Origin: an uncultured Gammaproteobacteria bacterium
GTDB lineage: Bacteria > Patescibacteriota > Patescibacteriia > 2-12-FULL-60-25
DNA length: 64,000 bases
NCBI GenBank assembly: GCA_964415965.1
Contig: CAYQCK010000003.1
Span: forward strand, 3,426 to 67,425
Reading direction: 5' to 3'
The notes under the pieces: generated by a model
The model's input: the letters and a program-made list of their open reading frames with translations, nothing else
Told to the model about the DNA's origin: nothing
The model's database searches: none
Part shown: piece after piece, positions 1,447 to 58,186 of the stretch
Layout: each line of letters starts with the position of its first letter
How positions within the stretch are numbered: the first letter of the stretch is position 1
Made by a program: the position numbers and the translations under genes

Positions 1447-1533
1447 TGGTGCACAGGAGAGGATTTGAACCTCCATGGGGTTGCCCCCGCTAGCCCCTCA
1501 AGCTAGTGCGTATACCAATTCCGCCACCTGTGC
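1447..1533 (-). tRNA. tRNA-Leu, anticodon GAG, class II with a long variable arm
   Basis: The reverse complement folds as a cloverleaf with a 7-bp acceptor stem (GCACAGG/CCTGTGC), an anticodon stem CTAGC/GCTAG around loop TTGAGGG, a long variable arm, a GGTTCAAATCC T-loop and 3' CCA. Length is 87 nt. Confidence 0.85.
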
Positions 1534-21833: not shown

Positions 21834-21914
21834 ACCCCGGGGGACGTCCGACGTCTCCCACCCACCTCTTCAACTGACCGTTGCTCTACTCAAGCATCGG
21901 TCAGTTTTCTTTTT

Positions 21915-21948
21915 ATGCAAAAAAACCAGGGCGCATGACAATGCGCCC
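21915..21948 (-). terminator. rho-independent terminator abutting the rsmA stop codon
   Basis: The reverse strand reads GGGCGCATtgtcATGCGCCC followed by TGGTTTTTTTGC. Confidence 0.55.
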
Positions 21949-22776
21949 CTACATTTCTGATGTTTTCGCCAGCCGCGCCCAATCATCCGGCGACAAATCC
22001 TCGGCACGCGCTTTTTCATCAATTCCCAAATCACGTAGGGGCGAATAATCATTCGCCCGCACCAACCCAAGGTTCGACGACAACAATTTCCTCGGATGAG
22101 CGAATCCTTTCTTCGCTACCTCCATTATCTTCTCCGGATTGATGCCCCATTTCTTTTCCCGCTCGGCCAAAGGCATGGGGACAATCTGCAGGACCACGGA
22201 TTCGACTTTCGGCGGCGGGTAGAAACACCCGGCCGGCACGCGCCTGACGATGCGCGCCGACTCCGCAGACAGGGCGACCATAAGCGACAGCAAAGATGTC
22301 TTGCTCTTCTTGATTTTCGGGTCCGCGACCTCGACAGCCCTCTCCCCGACCTCGCGCTGGACCAGCACGACCAGGTTCTCCGGCGGCTTCGGCGCCCACA
22401 GCGCCTTGCGCAACGCCAACGACGTTATCGAATAAGGCAGGTTGGCCACGAACTTCCACGTCCGCTCCCCGATGAGTTCATGCCAATGGATTTCCGCGGC
22501 GTCGCCGTACACGATTTCGGCATCCACCGATTTGAGATATTCCACCATCCTCCGGTCCTGCTCGATGGCCGTGACTTCCGCGCCACGCGCCAGGAGCTCT
22601 TTGGTCAGGACGCCCAAACCCGGTCCGACTTCCAGGACGAAATCGCCGGGCTTGATGGCCGCCGCATCCACGATGGACCCCAGGACGGCCTGGTCGATGA
22701 GGAAGTGTTGCCCCAGGCTTTTGTTTGCCCGGCCGCCCATCCCGGCAAGCACCTGCTTGATTTCGGTCGGTTTCAT
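21949..22776 (-). CDS. rsmA: 16S rRNA (adenine1518/1519-N6)-dimethyltransferase
   Basis: KsgA signature LGQHFLID and SAM motif VLEVGPGLGVLT. 275 aa. Confidence 0.9.
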   Translation of the reverse strand: MKPTEIKQVLAGMGGRANKSLGQHFLIDQAVLGSIVDAAAIKPGDFVLEVGPGLGVLTKELLARGAEVTAIEQDRRMVEYLKSVDAEIVYGDAAEIHWHELIGERTWKFVANLPYSITSLALRKALWAPKPPENLVVLVQREVGERAVEVADPKIKKSKTSLLSLMVALSAESARIVRRVPAGCFYPPPKVESVVLQIVPMPLAEREKKWGINPEKIMEVAKKGFAHPRKLLSSNLGLVRANDYSPLRDLGIDEKARAEDLSPDDWARLAKTSEM

Positions 22777-51259: not shown

Positions 51260-51513
51260 TGCTGTATATCTAGCTCCGAAAGTATAGCATGCCGACGCCC
51301 AAAACGGGAACGCCCCGACCCCGCAGAAATCGCGGACAGCACCACCCTCCGCCCAAACCCGTTCTCCAGCTTCCTCCGAGGGATTTCAATGCCCCTTTTT
51401 CGTACATGCCGTTGGGCACCTGTTGTTCCCTAGCCCAACCATGGATTCCAGCTGGAGTTTACCCCGGCCACCGAGCCGGGGCTGGAATGACAGTAGAGGC
51501 GAAAACGCCCCGT

Positions 51514-51641
51514 TTCGCAAGTGACGCAGGGGGTCTGGGGGGCCGCGCAAGCGTGGCGCACAGAATCACAAAAGCCCGCGACACCGAGAGCGGCATCGCG
51601 GACCCCCAGGACTTTTGCTACTTTTGGTCACAAAAGTAGAT
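51514..51641 (-). ncRNA. candidate structured cis-regulatory RNA element, copy A (of two), in the leader of the TSP3-like/giant-protein operon
   Basis: About 80% identical to 54467-54593. It shares a 9-bp hairpin (CUACUUUUG-N4-CAAAAGUAG) and an 11-bp long-range helix whose differences from the other copy are paired changes that keep the helix intact. Confidence 0.4.
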
Positions 51642-51646
51642 TTAAA

Positions 51647-52018
51647 TCATTCCCCCTCCCACTCTATCGCAATCTTCTGCCCATGCTCACGCACCGGAAT
51701 GCGGATTTCGAGCACGCCGTTCTTGAGCGTGGACTGGGCCGAATCCGTCGCCACCTCGTACGGCAGGACGATCGAACGGCTGAAAGCGCCCCAAAAACAT
51801 TCACGATAGAACCAATCGTCCTCCGGGACTTCCTTGATCATCGAGCGGTGGCCGCGGATGGTAAGCAGGTCGCCATGGATGGAGATGTCCAGATCCTCCG
51901 GCCGCACCCCGGCGACCGTCGATCGGATGACGAGCTCATCGCCATCGCGGAAAACATCGACCGACAGCTGCCCCTCGTTCGAAGGAGCCATCCAATCATT
52001 CGCCGGAAGGATTTGCAT
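51647..52018 (-). CDS. Hsp20/alpha-crystallin small heat-shock protein
   Basis: Alpha-crystallin domain (VDVFRDGDELVIRSTVAGVRPEDLDISIHGDLLTIRG...LPYEVATDSAQSTLKNGVLEIRIP). Start at MQILPANDW. The ORF-track extension to 52105 would encode the palindromic repeats. Confidence 0.85.
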   Translation of the reverse strand: MQILPANDWMAPSNEGQLSVDVFRDGDELVIRSTVAGVRPEDLDISIHGDLLTIRGHRSMIKEVPEDDWFYRECFWGAFSRSIVLPYEVATDSAQSTLKNGVLEIRIPVREHGQKIAIEWEGE

Positions 52019-52059
52019 ACGGCGGAAGTATACCAGAGATTCCGGCATCCCGGCCAAAC

Positions 52060-52262
52060 GCCAGAACTCCGGAGACCCCGGGTCGATGCCCGGGGAATCA
52101 AACACGATAGCTCGAATTCCATTTTTTCTGACATCCCGGCCAAGCGAGGCCGCCGAGCGCGAGCCGGGATCTCTGAACGGAGACCCCGGGTCTCGGCGCT
52201 GCCTCGCCCGGGGTGTCGATAATTACGTCGGCAACCGAAACCCCGGGTCGATGCCCGGGGTG
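52060..52262. repeat. GC-rich palindromic intergenic repeat cluster, locus 2
   Basis: Three copies of (g)aCCCCGGGtcgatgCCCGGGG-like hairpins, plus the ~75-bp TGACATCCCGGCcaagcgaggccgccgagcgcgaGCCGGGATctctg unit shared with 35955-36080. Confidence 0.5.
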
Positions 52263-52295
52263 TTGAATGCTGTTTGGGCGAATGATTATTCGCCC

Positions 52296-54137
52296 CTACT
52301 CCGTTTTCTTGTCTCCTTCGGTCGTCGCCGACAATTTCTCGACGCCGATCAGGCACACGGCCTGCCACGGCCGGTAATGGCTGCGGAAGACCTGCTTGCG
52401 GTCCTCGCCGCCCGGCATCTTCACGGTATAGACGAACTCGGCATCCAGCCCGGTGTGGGCGATTTCGGTGCACTTCTTCTTGCCCGGGGCCAAATCCAGC
52501 GTCTCGACCAGCTTGGTCGGCGGCGGCGCGACCGAATTCCAGGTCCGCGGATAACTGTAATCGCCTTGCCGGCCGTCCGATGTGCCCCAGAACTCGAAGA
52601 ACAGCTCATCACCCTTCTGGAAAGCGTGGATCATGATGGGATTGCCGGTATCGTTCCTGAATTTCAGGTCGGGATGCGGGCCGTAGATGGTGGCGTCGGT
52701 GCCGGGCGGATCGTAATAGCGGACGCGGTACGAATGGTTCTGGCGCTCGGTGATCGGCAGGCCGGATTTCATGGCCCCGCGGAACAGCGTCGTCCCGATC
52801 TGGCAGAGTCCCCCGCCGTACTCCGGTTTGGTCTCGTTGCCCTTGATGACCATCTCCGGGAACCAGCCGTGTTTGCCGTCGATTTCGCCCATGGTATCGA
52901 CCGTCGAGAACTCGGCGCCCGCTTCGATGATGGTGCCGTTAAGGATCTCGATGGCGCGCGCGATGTTCTTGCGGCGATTGGTCGGCGAACCGGAGAAATT
53001 CGAGTACCCCGTGCCGAGCAGTTCCTTGATGCCCATCTTCTGCGGATCCTCTCCGGCCAAAGTCGCCGCGATCTTCCTGACCTGCAACGGGAAAGTCGAG
53101 GTGGCGGGCCATTCGGCCAAGACCGGCTTCAGGGTCGCGTCGGCGTCGATGGCAGAGCCCTCGGTGCCGGCGGTGAAGGACGCGATCTTCCCGTCCTTGA
53201 ATTCCAGGCTGCCCTTCTTGCCCTCTTTCTCGACGCCCGGCGCCGCCGTCTTGATGCCTTCCGCGAACTTCTTGGCGTCGATGGTCAAAGCAAGCTCGCC
53301 GGCCTTGCCCGCGACCCCGATCCAACCGGCCAAAGTCGAGGTCGGGATGGCGTAATTGTTCTTTTCGTAGGTAAATACCAGCTGCGGCCGGTTCAGGAAA
53401 TCGAAGACTTGCGGCATCAGCGGTTCCAGGTCGGCCGCCGAAATCGTCGGCTTCACCGTCCTGACGCTCAAGGCGATCGGCTTGAAATCCAATTTTTTCG
53501 CTTGACGCTCCAATTCATCCATCGCGTTGTCCGTGATGAGCACCTGGCCGCCTCGTTCCGGCTCGATCGAGACCGACGGCCGCGTGCCCGACGGCGCGCT
53601 GATGGCAAGAGCCGCGTCCTTCGCCTCCTTCAGGTCGGATTTGAGGTTCGCCTGCAAGGCATCCACCACAGCCGCCCTGTCGACCGTGACCCGCGCCAAG
53701 ATGTCCATCGGGTAGACGCGCAAACGCATCTGCTCCTGGACGTCCTTGCGCCAACCGTCTTCGCGGCCCAAGCCGTAGGCGACGTCCAACGCCTGGTCGA
53801 CGTCGTAGCGCACCAAATCGCGCGATGCGTCCGGATCGGTCGAAGCGGAAGTGACGTCGAGGGTCACGTCGCGTCCTTGGTAGCTGAAACGCAATCCTTT
53901 GCCCAAGGCGTCGTCGATGGCCTTCTGCACGGTTTGGCGCGCCTCGCTCTTGGTCAATCCGTCGAGCCTGACGCCCAAAATCCTGACGCCCGGGAACATC
54001 CGGTTCTCGTACAGGCGCCCGTAGGCCATCAGCGAACCGGCGGCCATCAAGCAGCCCACGGCCAAGATGCCGACCATGACGTTCGTCCAGACGAGGATTA
54101 TCCTGACCGTCTGGAGCTTCGGATTCTTGCTGGCCAT
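52296..54137 (-). CDS. VanW-family protein with N-terminal TM anchor
   Basis: 613 aa. N-terminal TM (IILVWTNVMVGILAVGCLMAAG). C-terminal VanW domain (EYGGGLCQIGTTLFRGAMKSGLPITERQNHSYRVRYYDPPGTDATI). Confidence 0.8.
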   Translation of the reverse strand: MASKNPKLQTVRIILVWTNVMVGILAVGCLMAAGSLMAYGRLYENRMFPGVRILGVRLDGLTKSEARQTVQKAIDDALGKGLRFSYQGRDVTLDVTSASTDPDASRDLVRYDVDQALDVAYGLGREDGWRKDVQEQMRLRVYPMDILARVTVDRAAVVDALQANLKSDLKEAKDAALAISAPSGTRPSVSIEPERGGQVLITDNAMDELERQAKKLDFKPIALSVRTVKPTISAADLEPLMPQVFDFLNRPQLVFTYEKNNYAIPTSTLAGWIGVAGKAGELALTIDAKKFAEGIKTAAPGVEKEGKKGSLEFKDGKIASFTAGTEGSAIDADATLKPVLAEWPATSTFPLQVRKIAATLAGEDPQKMGIKELLGTGYSNFSGSPTNRRKNIARAIEILNGTIIEAGAEFSTVDTMGEIDGKHGWFPEMVIKGNETKPEYGGGLCQIGTTLFRGAMKSGLPITERQNHSYRVRYYDPPGTDATIYGPHPDLKFRNDTGNPIMIHAFQKGDELFFEFWGTSDGRQGDYSYPRTWNSVAPPPTKLVETLDLAPGKKKCTEIAHTGLDAEFVYTVKMPGGEDRKQVFRSHYRPWQAVCLIGVEKLSATTEGDKKTE

Positions 54138-54147
54138 ATGGTCTATT

Positions 54148-54372
54148 CTACCCTTTCAGGAGCTCATTGAGGAGATGTCGGGCCAGGCGCTGGCGTCCGG
54201 CATCCTCTCCGCCCAAAACCGCGGCGAGCAAGGCGATATCCTGGCCGACCTTGGCCTCCCCCTCGATGGCCGACACGGGCAACGCCAAAATCCGCCCGTT
54301 CTCCAAGCGCAGCTCAGCCTCTTCACCCCTGATTTCGGATATCTTGCCTTTCAACATATTGATGGCGCACAT
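54148..54372 (-). CDS. small hypothetical protein (74 aa) at the head of the VanW operon
   Basis: The ORF begins about 50 nt after the copy-B RNA element. Its stop lies 8 nt before the VanW start. Confidence 0.4.
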   Translation of the reverse strand: MCAINMLKGKISEIRGEEAELRLENGRILALPVSAIEGEAKVGQDIALLAAVLGGEDAGRQRLARHLLNELLKG

Positions 54373-54466
54373 TAGCCCGGAAATTAATTAATGTAAAGCC
54401 TCAAACGGGACGATGATTTCGGGATGACATGGCCCAATCACTAAATTCGGTCTGAATGAGCCCCAC

Positions 54467-54593
54467 TTCGCAAGTGACAAGGGGGACCGGGGGTCCATGC
54501 TAAGCGTGGCCCGCAGGATAGCCGACGCTGGCGATACCGAGAGCGCATCATGGACCCCCGGAACTTTTGCTACTTTTGGTTACAAAAGTAGAT
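54467..54593 (-). ncRNA. candidate structured cis-regulatory RNA element, copy B, in the leader of the small-ORF/VanW operon
   Basis: See copy A. Here the long-range helix is GGGGGUCCAUG/CAUGGACCCCC and the hairpin loop is UAAC (UGAC in copy A). Confidence 0.4.
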
Positions 54594-54790
54594 AGGATGG
54601 CTTTCGCCCCAAATAACAAAACAAGGCCTAAGGTAATCCGCATCCAAGAAACCTATTTATAGGGGAGTGCAAGTCCGAAGACCTGCGGCACCCTACGAAA
54701 GAGGTTCCATGCTTGTCGTGGACGCGGATTGCCCCAGACCTCGTGGCCTCGGCTATCCGTCAAGCTGTCAAAGCGCTGGCGTAATGAGTG

Positions 54791-54819
54791 GTTATAACAT
54801 GCCCCGGAAATCCTGTCAA
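54791..54819 (-). promoter_or_regulatory. sigma70-like promoter (TTGACA-N17-TATAAC) driving a ~400-nt leader that contains the copy-B RNA element
   Basis: The reverse strand reads TTGACAggatttccggggcatgtTATAAC. A perfect -35 and a near-consensus -10. Confidence 0.5.
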
Positions 54820-58111: not shown

Positions 58112-58186
58112 CAAGACAGGATAATGCTGCTAACGTTTATCCCCGAAACCCAGGGCGCACGACCATGCGCCCCTACCTACACCTAT

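Follow-up and report, generated by a model that had tools for sequence, protein, structure and literature searches.

A dispersed bacterial element with a pseudoknot and a predicted major-groove triple helix

Pseudoknots in which a hairpin loop pairs with a distal strand, and in which a U-rich connector lies in the major groove of an A-U stem, are found in telomerase RNA (P2b-P3), SAM-II, SAM-V and preQ1-II. The element described here, for which the same placement of the connector is predicted, is present in two copies, A and B, in a 64,000-nucleotide (nt) stretch of contig CAYQCK010000003.1 from an uncultured bacterium. “The window” means this whole 64-kb stretch, and all coordinates and + and - strands refer to it. 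As in telomerase RNA and the three other pseudoknots, the stem is invariant where the triples would form and the other helices covary. There are also differences. The pseudoknot is here the 3' domain of a dispersed element of about 112 nt, rather than an aptamer in a 5' untranslated region (5' UTR) or a part of a ribonucleoprotein RNA. Its predicted triplex is longer (4 to 9 triples), and it has no associated ligand, ribosome-binding site or regulated gene.

Another comparison is with MALAT1 and the elements for nuclear expression (ENEs). ENEs occur in eukaryotic and viral RNAs and in plant and fungal transposon RNAs. The likeness is that two U-rich tracts clamp an A-rich tract and that C+.G-C interrupts the runs of U.A-U, as predicted here for the family members L067b and L090b. 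Protection of a 3' end is a plausible shared role. In the present element, by contrast, the A-tract belongs to a local hairpin, as its 3' arm, and there is no poly(A) tail. A 2026 review of RNA triple helices, which includes the ENE and MALAT1 structures, gives riboswitches and group II introns as its prokaryotic examples (PMC13541005). A dispersed bacterial element with 4-9 triples would thus be a new form of a known architecture.

A and B are paralogues, two copies of one self-contained element of about 112-135 nt, belonging to a large family without a match in Rfam 15. It is very probable that this family is a dispersed and autonomous one of structured elements, and not an operon leader. 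The original prediction made for this DNA had read the minus strand as RNA and had placed both copies in the leaders of cell-envelope operons. The covariation that it described is real; the evidence below favours the opposite strand and a position outside the leaders.

Fold of the two copies and the predicted triple helix

On the + strand each copy consists of a small hairpin, P0, and a 112-nt core. The core contains a long-range helix (P1), a three-nucleotide strand (X), the tract TTTTG and a hairpin (c). The parts are as follows.

51508..51641 (+): copy A, whole element (P0 and 112-nt core), aligned to B; covariance model R1 matches 51530-51641 with 94.8 bits, E = 7e-24
51508..51533 (+): copy A, P0 hairpin, seen in the sequence; CCCC 51508-11, loop with TTCGCAAGTGAC, GGGGG 51529-33
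51535..51547 (+): copy A, 5' strand of P1, CTGGGGGGCCGCG; paired at 12/13 positions with 51597-51609, with double changes family-wide
51548..51596 (+): copy A, interior of P1, 49 nt and rich in A (16 A, 3 T); the blocks CAAGCGTGG and CCGAGAGCGGCAT are conserved
51597..51609 (+): copy A, 3' strand of P1, CGCGGACCCCCAG
51610..51617 (+): copy A, X = GAC 51610-12 (partner loop GTC), from the pseudoknot statistics, and putative third-strand tract TTTTG 51613-17, from the triplex covariation of the family
51618..51639 (+): copy A, hairpin c, CTACTTTTG / loop GTCA 51627-30 / CAAAAGTAG
54461..54593 (+): copy B, whole element (P0 and 112-nt core); R1 matches 54482-54593 with 106.4 bits
54461..54485 (+): copy B, P0 hairpin; CCCC, inner stem CACTT-CGC-AAGTG, GGGGG
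54487..54499 (+): copy B, 5' strand of P1, CCGGGGGTCCATG; perfect 13 bp
54500..54548 (+): copy B, interior of P1, 49 nt, with blocks CTAAGCGTGG and CCGAGAGCGCAT
54549..54561 (+): copy B, 3' strand of P1, CATGGACCCCCGG
54562..54569 (+): copy B, X = AAC (partner loop GTT) and putative third-strand tract TTTTG 54565-69
54570..54591 (+): copy B, hairpin c, CTACTTTTG / loop GTTA / CAAAAGTAG

The two copies have a mean column identity of 81% in a minus-strand alignment with flanks included, close to the 80% first estimated. The palindrome CTACTTTTG-N4-CAAAAGTAG occurs exactly twice in the 64 kb and in 0/100 dinucleotide shuffles. A third copy was not found in the window by R1, a model built from 14 family members, even with filters off. 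Rfam 15 gives no match to the window at gathering thresholds, and on the element no E-value falls below 0.9, in agreement with the earlier failure to place it in a riboswitch class.

Hairpin c had been described as a 9-bp stem that stays intact while its loop varies, and this is what is seen: the loop on the + strand is GTCA in A and GTTA in B. The 11-bp long-range helix proposed at the same time stands in copy B, where P1 is perfect over 13 bp. In copy A, 10 of those 11 pairs form, with a mismatch at the sixth pair; this is the single mismatch of its P1, a G-A on the + strand (U-C on the minus strand). Two compensatory pair changes between the copies (A-U to G-C and U-A to C-G) were correctly identified. 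A third was missed: the 3 nt before TTTTG (GAC or AAC) covary with the loop (GTC or GTT).

Towards the 5' side of the + strand, A and B stay similar for about another 25 nt, into P0 (CCCC / loop TTCGCAAGTGAC / GGGG). The inner stem of P0 is CACUU/AAGUG in copy B and at locus L136, the closest relative of the window copies. In copy A it is CGUUU/AAGUG, which is held on the + strand solely through G-U and U-G pairs. The P0 motif is confined to Uhrbacteria-like loci, apart from one isolated match in an Anaerolineaceae contig (L053).

Evidence for the fold comes from a covariance-model alignment of 37 members, in which 91.8% of the cells are paired, compared with 76.8% in shuffles. Covariation scores 0.356 here and 0.120 in shuffled alignments; 0/500 shuffles reach the observed value, and controls with a slid 3' partner give at most 0.109. 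Double-sided changes are present at 12/12 modelled P1 pairs and at 3/3 X-loop pairs, and 91.7% of the cells of the X-loop pairs are paired. In the sub-family nearest to the window copies, for instance, the inner part of P1 is UCCAUG / CAUGGA in copy B, CCGCG / CGCGG in copy A, UUUUUG / CAAAAA in L145, UUUUCG / CGAAAA in L126 and UCCGC / GCGGA in L153. The foot of the hairpin (CUAC/GUAG) also covaries, to GUUC/GAAC or UUAC/GUAA, and may carry extra basal C-G, G-C or U-A pairs.

The pairing between X and the loop can be followed in individual members. X is fully complementary to the first three loop nucleotides in 43/73 dereplicated members, with complementary triplet pairs of 16 kinds. When the loops are shuffled among the sequences, 3.6 members on average, and never more than 11, are fully complementary. 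The hairpin loop therefore pairs with a strand outside the hairpin, which makes the fold a pseudoknot.

Compensation is also found between close copies. The orthologous copies at site B, in the window and in L153, differ in P1 by compensatory changes, and the spacer that flanks them cannot be aligned. The paralogues A and B, as well as L057 and L067, likewise retain P1 through compensatory substitutions. The element is thus a structured domain backed by covariation. It is under selection for single-strand structure, and the selection on RNA-like structure that had been proposed from two copies is borne out by an alignment of 37 members far above its shuffled and slid controls.

Two further readings of the pair were rejected. 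A double-stranded DNA operator made of the 9-bp inverted repeat leaves the covariation of loop and X, and that of the U-tract and purine arm described below, unexplained. A template and variable repeat of a diversity-generating retroelement does not fit either, since the mismatches between A and B are not adenine-specific and include an indel.

The upstream UUUU and the UUUU/AAAA core of the stem are invariant, whereas the hairpin foot and P1 covary freely. A U-tract placed in the major groove of the A-U stem would be expected to give such a pattern. The purine arm of the hairpin and the upstream tract take the following forms.

Canonical: purine arm C-AAAA-G, upstream tract UUUU-G
L090:5091-5201 (L090b): purine arm C-AGAAA-G, tract UCUUU-G (UCUUUG with AGAAAG)
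L067:4143-4260 (L067b): purine arm C-AAAAGAAA-G, tract UUUUCUUU-G (UUUUCUUUG with AAAAGAAAG)
L098:310-425: six A, six U (UUUUUUG with AAAAAAG)
L106:5598-5642: three A, three U (UUUG with AAAG)
Peribacteria copies: six A, five U

In all of these variants the tract sequence complements that of the purine arm in parallel Hoogsteen fashion, such that U reads A and C reads an internal G. The lengths of tract and arm also co-vary (3/3, 4/4, 5/6 and 6/6). A third strand that is parallel to the purine arm and changes with it according to U.A-U or C+.G-C, here in few independent events, points to a triple helix of the pyrimidine motif within the major groove, with the + strand as RNA. Since such a triplex forms only when the + strand is folded, the + strand would be the RNA.

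Several weaker indicators lean towards the same strand. In the interior of P1 the AT skew is +0.20, compared with +0.03 in the flanks, and the interior skew is positive in 28/37 members (p = 0.0008). The 37-member alignment has 23 G-U-type and 12 A-C-type cells, counts that come from a + oriented alignment and in which one column pair supplies 8 of the 23. The + strand folds more stably in 24/37 members. The top hairpin pair is a G-U on the + strand in L121, L146 and L127, and the inner stem of P0 in copy A is, as mentioned, held by G-U and U-G pairs. Isolated G-T and A-C differences in ad hoc helices (10 vs 15, many of the helices spurious) are uninformative on the strand. On balance the minus strand, which had been read as the RNA, is disfavoured by the triplex covariation, the A-rich interior, the G-U and A-C counts and the folding energies.

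No positional enrichment with a peak was found for -10-like hexamers upstream of the model start. TAnnnT is present 4-9 nt upstream in individual members and is not decisive. The + strand of both window copies is antisense to the flanking genes.

Genomic setting

The window copies lie in a gene order (SMC, small open reading frame (ORF), VanW, HSP20, TSP3_bac-like protein, giant protein) that is conserved in five syntenic contigs, with VanW identities of 62-80%. The VanW homologues carry the source names Candidatus Uhrbacteria or Patescibacteria, by which the window is judged to be Uhrbacteria-like, and the same locus is found on JGI contig Ga0248168_1000807. When the five contigs are scanned with R1, the element is found at site B of L153 only, sites A and B being the positions that correspond to the two copies.

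L151: site B empty, site A empty
L152 (near-identical to L151): site B empty, contig stops before site A
L153: site B present, site A empty
L154: site B empty, site A empty
L155: site B empty, site A empty

Both sites are thus empty in 3/5 contigs, which represent 2/4 relative genomes, and the presence of the element is polymorphic among relatives that share the genes. The site B orthologue of L151 carries a solo P0 (5327-5360), CTCC-TTGCCACTTGCGAAGC-GGAG, the stem of which is compensated relative to CCCC/GGGG. It is followed by tandem GTCGTCCTGAGCGCCTCTTGT / GTCATCCTGAGCGTAGCGAAG repeats. This P0 could be either an insertion point or the remnant of a deletion.

Promoters in this region were placed by conservation across the five syntenic contigs and not by mapping of transcription starts. 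The small ORF is immediately preceded by a promoter, TTTACA-N17-TAATGT (also TAATCT/TAAGAT), at 54364-54397(-), which is conserved in all relatives; copy B lies upstream of it. The small ORF itself probably starts at its second ATG (54357) and not at 54372, which would make the mRNA nearly leaderless. Directly before the TSP3-like gene there is a conserved extended -10, TGCTATACT, at 51276-51289(-), more than 200 nt downstream of copy A. Because conserved promoters separate each copy from the gene that follows, both copies lie outside the 5' UTRs, contrary to their assignment to operon leaders. Copy A sits between the Hsp20 stop codon (51647-49, minus strand), 7 nt from the end of its hairpin c, and the next promoter. 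Copy B sits between a terminator and the next promoter.

That terminator belongs to a separate RNA. The near-consensus promoter TTGACA-N17-TATAAC at 54786-54819(-), which had been taken for the promoter of copy B, precedes a rod-like RNA of about 130 nt at 54615-54746(-) that is conserved in all relatives. Its fold has 48 predicted pairs, 8 of which show compensatory changes among four syntenic sequences, and it ends in a long closing stem followed by GUUUUGUU, that is, a stem and a U-run. It has no Rfam match. A possible role for the rod-like RNA is as a small RNA (sRNA), or as an attenuator of the small-ORF (DUF3006-like)/VanW operon; for local regulation it is a better candidate than the element next to it.

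Elsewhere, no link to envelope operons is seen. The element at L136 is flanked by radA and recG, which converge on it, and is 12 nt away from the stop codon of recG. Across about 100 loci among the matches listed there is no recurrent neighbouring protein family, and the upstream genes are unrelated housekeeping genes. The classes of neighbour orientation are about equally filled (++ 12, -- 15, +- 16, -+ 11). With most syntenic sites empty as well, the tempting call that the element regulates the VanW or giant-protein operons has to be corrected: it does not.

The wider family and its competing explanations

A scan for the exact hairpin pattern in one genome per GTDB species gave at least 114 stretches with at least 116 hits. 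TTTTG, followed by 0-2 nt, stands on one side only in 103/116 of the hits among the matches listed. This gives each hit an orientation and makes the palindrome part of a larger asymmetric unit. The oriented hits among the matches listed come from Clostridia (46), Patescibacteria or the candidate phyla radiation (CPR; 26), Bacteroidota (16), Gammaproteobacteria (8) and other taxa (7). A metagenome scan with a more specific pattern gave 35 stretches, about a dozen of which bear the element, L136 included. There were zero matches in 2.9 million viral contigs and 72,556 plasmids, and an origin from phages or plasmids was rejected on this ground.

The layout of type P members begins in + orientation with GGGG, 0-3 nt, and a P1 of 7-14 bp that encloses about 45-50 nt. 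It continues with X (3 nt), UUUUG, 0-2 nt, CUACUUUUG, a 4-nt loop and CAAAAGUAG. The total length of type P members is nearly constant, at 106-120 nt. The hairpin of the family has 9-11 bp with an invariant UUUU/AAAA core. The P1 interior keeps its length (about 47-50 nt) and its blocks, YUAAGCG ... GAGAGCG-NAU, from Patescibacteria to Clostridia. A consensus fold of this interior was not resolved by RNAalifold. Kink-turn and UAA/GAN readings of the two blocks were considered and not established. For the 5' G-run, the partners tried were an upstream CCCC (P0), a downstream GCCC, G-U pairing with the U-tract (RNAalifold) and competition with a second G-run; none of them holds throughout the family.

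In the Peribacteria loci L005 and L045 (metagenome-assembled genome (MAG) CAZKLD01) and L080 (CP060226, 744-752 kb), there are 3-6 copies per 8 kb, a density far above that in the window's genome. They occupy successive intergenic regions, are mostly co-oriented, and have hairpins with longer U/A tracts. MAGs of Clostridia and Bacteroidota have several near-identical copies at contig ends. In the probably degenerate copy at L127 1781-1915 (-), the pseudoknot is broken up by about 25 nt inserted into the hairpin loop (GCTTCGGCGTGAGCTCAGTCGAACG). Clostridia copies of type b from rumen and gut (L040, L092, L116, L117 and L138) have, in + orientation, a perfect TATAAAT about 25 nt upstream of an AAGTRACGCC block, and in MAG JAFWDJ01 about 130 nt of further conserved sequence lie beyond the hairpin. 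The clostridial unit may therefore be longer, or have its own promoter. GTAG forms the foot of hairpin c, and a GC mini-hairpin comes next in many members, though not after the window copies.

Rfam 15, run in gathering and E-value modes on 18 loci and two variant loci, gave no family above threshold. Chance hits to preQ1, naRNA4 and DsrA were obtained below threshold, together with one match to RF02937, Clostridiales-2, a candidate sRNA. This family is matched, on the same strand, by the module that lies upstream in the Clostridial variant (GGGG-NN-hairpin-GUUUUGA-GGGG...). The match on the Clostridial variant L099, however, has 23.4 bits against a gathering threshold of 58.6, the RF02937 model lacks the UUUUG-hairpin pseudoknot, and there is no match to it on the window copies or on 18 other loci. 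Nothing relevant was found in the literature on the hairpin sequence or on Clostridiales-2, nor in a 2026 preprint on intergenic features.

Taken together, the favoured reading is a stand-alone structured RNA module on the + strand, with a 3' triplex-pseudoknot as a very stable cap, that spreads by duplication or mobilisation; its probability is put at roughly 0.6. From 5' to 3', such an RNA would consist of an optional, lineage-specific P0, the invariant G-run, P1 with its A-rich interior, X, UUUUG and the hairpin. The hairpin loop would pair with X to give an H-type pseudoknot, and UUUUG would enter the major groove of the hairpin to form U.A-U triples, with C+.G-C in variants. The resulting end could be an exonuclease-resistant 3' end, or else a platform for a protein or ligand. 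The element is gained and lost at intergenic “safe” sites between transcription units, also between close relatives. A P1 that is compensated within an unalignable spacer, an interior of constant length and the logic of the triplex argue for selection at the level of the host on a folded RNA, and not for a decaying selfish repeat.

A number of points weigh against this reading. The well-supported helices are almost purely Watson-Crick, which would also be expected of a single-stranded DNA element or of recently copied repeats. The variants that decide for the triplex are few, namely two sequence variants and four length classes, and the reverse complement permits a formal purine-motif triplex on the minus strand. 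The orientation of the alignment behind the G-U count, and the column pair that dominates it, belong here too. No convincing + strand promoter was found upstream of A or B, and the invariant 5' G-run has no explained role. Finally, the MAGs with many near-identical copies at contig ends, and the Peribacteria with their 3-6 copies per 8 kb, resemble a mobile repeat.

In the main rival reading, the element would be a selfish DNA repeat of the repetitive extragenic palindrome (REP/REPIN) or PATE type, folded as single-stranded DNA and moved by a trans-acting HuH enzyme (RAYT or IS200-type), and its RNA structure would be incidental. Like REP/REPIN-RAYT, Correia and ERIC repeats, the family is small, structured, intergenic and multi-copy, lies between convergent genes and near stop codons, contains GTAG and varies in presence. 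REP/REPIN-RAYT repeats are characterised by a GTAG head with an imperfect GC-rich palindrome behind it, by tens to hundreds of copies per genome and by a cognate RAYT (Y1 HuH) gene. Near-identical copies in several MAGs, clustering in successive intergenic regions, differences between syntenic relatives, the occurrence of all orientations relative to neighbours, the mainly Watson-Crick helices, and the GTAG foot, often with a GC-rich mini-hairpin next to it as in REPs, are what such a repeat would lead one to expect. REPs, however, are lineage-specific, whereas the core of hairpin and U-tract is conserved across phyla and comes with a pseudoknot and a predicted triplex. Copy number in this genome is low (2 copies only in the 64-kb window), the interior is constant in length and A-rich on one strand, and paralogues and orthologues compensate their helices rather than decay. 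A pyrimidine-motif triplex of 4-9 triples is typical of RNA and not of short single-stranded DNA. No transposase adjoins any copy at about 100 loci among the matches listed, and no terminal inverted repeats or target duplications were seen. The ends, (CCCC...)GGGG... and ...CAAAAGTAG(AT), are not inverted repeats, as those of a DDE-type miniature inverted-repeat transposable element (MITE) would be, and the flanks of A, B and L136 have no target-site duplication in common. The possibility, raised with the original prediction, that the element is part of a MITE or insertion sequence is thus right in so far as copies outside leaders exist, and fails on the terminal repeats, the duplications and the strong covariation. 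A selfish repeat is therefore judged unlikely, if still the most serious competitor to a stand-alone RNA module. Association with TnpB, IscB or a transposase was rejected in the same survey, which found no shared protein cluster and diverse housekeeping ORFs upstream.

The remaining explanations are less probable still. It is improbable that the element is a terminator or insulator on the + strand, in which a GC-rich P1 followed by U-tracts stops transcription and the downstream hairpin modulates this. A short Clostridial variant does have a GC stem of 10-11 bp with an 8-nt loop, directly followed by GUUUUGCUACUUUUG, and on inspection fits the usual intrinsic-terminator criteria. There is also a mild excess of co-oriented upstream genes (37 vs 27) and of convergent downstream genes (52 vs 35) among the matches listed. 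The window copies lack the compact GC stem-loop with an immediate U-tract: their P1 has 49 nt inside it and ends 3 nt before the U-tract, and a terminator scan makes no call. Both run antisense to every gene around them, the co-directional contexts of the family divide 12 vs 15, and the X-loop pairing and the covariation of U-tract and purine arm are left unexplained. The odds are smaller again for a guide-RNA-like remnant, such as a TnpB omega-RNA or a Cas12a CRISPR RNA (crRNA) handle, or for an attC-like site that marks cassette boundaries. The 3' hairpin is indeed pseudoknotted, with a CUAC...GUAG foot, and in the window copies it ends in GUAGAU, like the 5' handle of the Cas12a crRNA; a pseudoknotted hairpin is likewise found at the 3' end of the TnpB omega-RNA. 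In the window and in L080, gene segments of 1.5-3 kb are also bordered by co-oriented copies. Against this, no tnpB, iscB, cas or integrase gene adjoins the roughly 100 loci among the matches listed, no CRISPR array or cas12 neighbour is seen, and the sequence after the hairpin is often conserved and not a variable, guide-like segment. RYYYAAC/GTTRRRY core sites are absent from A and B on inspection. Genes that lie between copies either have housekeeping functions (HflX, DAHP synthase, RmuC) or come with promoters of their own, and the viral and plasmid collections are, as said above, without a match. An equally slight chance is left to a riboswitch-like, or protein- or sRNA-targeted, minus-strand leader of the envelope operons. 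Its appeal comes from the conserved and covarying structure, from the position of B between a strong promoter and the small-ORF/VanW operon and of A upstream of the TSP3-like operon, and from the hairpin, A-rich linker and 3-bp pairing, which resemble a preQ1-I-type pseudoknot. The operon promoters downstream of both copies, the separate terminated RNA served by the upstream promoter, the empty sites in most relatives, the radA/recG copy, the lack of a family-wide gene association and the strand evidence largely refute this model.

A broader form of the favoured RNA reading is possible, though it is held only tentatively. The family might be a widespread bacterial class of structured RNA with a telomerase- or ENE-like 3' pseudoknot of 4-9 triples, used as a stand-alone module, for example as an exonuclease-resistant end of an RNA, or for ligand or protein binding or self-processing. 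If true, this would be the first such long triple-helix element in bacteria beyond riboswitch aptamers and group II introns, and a testable bacterial case of RNA stabilisation or recognition by a triple helix. It would also be a common unannotated RNA module, including in reduced-genome Patescibacteria and uncultured gut and rumen Clostridia, with an architecture whose main known examples are telomerase RNA, stability elements of viral RNAs and lncRNAs and, on a miniature scale, a few riboswitches. A new annotation family would result for sites that are now unannotated or overlapped by listed, probably spurious ORFs. In CPR genomes, the element would provide a marker for intergenic gain and loss.

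Other features of the window

A weak match to preQ1-I is found at 54570-54630 (+), with 16.4 bits against a gathering threshold of 39 and E = 7. Its source is CCCCAAAUAACAAAACAAGG, immediately 3' of copy B. It is not followed by a + strand gene, and it is judged to be due to chance.

The window contains a second, unrelated repeat family, at 35953-36083 and 52072-52266. It has hairpins of the form GAGACCCCGGGTC...GCCCGGGG and a block of 52 nt with 94% identity, and the Hsp20-VanW spacer is filled by one of its copies. Another repeat, of 41 nt, is found at 21912-21952 and 58136-58176. It has the hairpin CCAGGGCGCAyGACmATGCGCCCC, is 83% identical and may be a terminator-like element.

The window also has a full-length 16S rRNA gene at 17735-19240 (-) and tRNA genes at 13913-13986 (+) and 1450-1533 (-).

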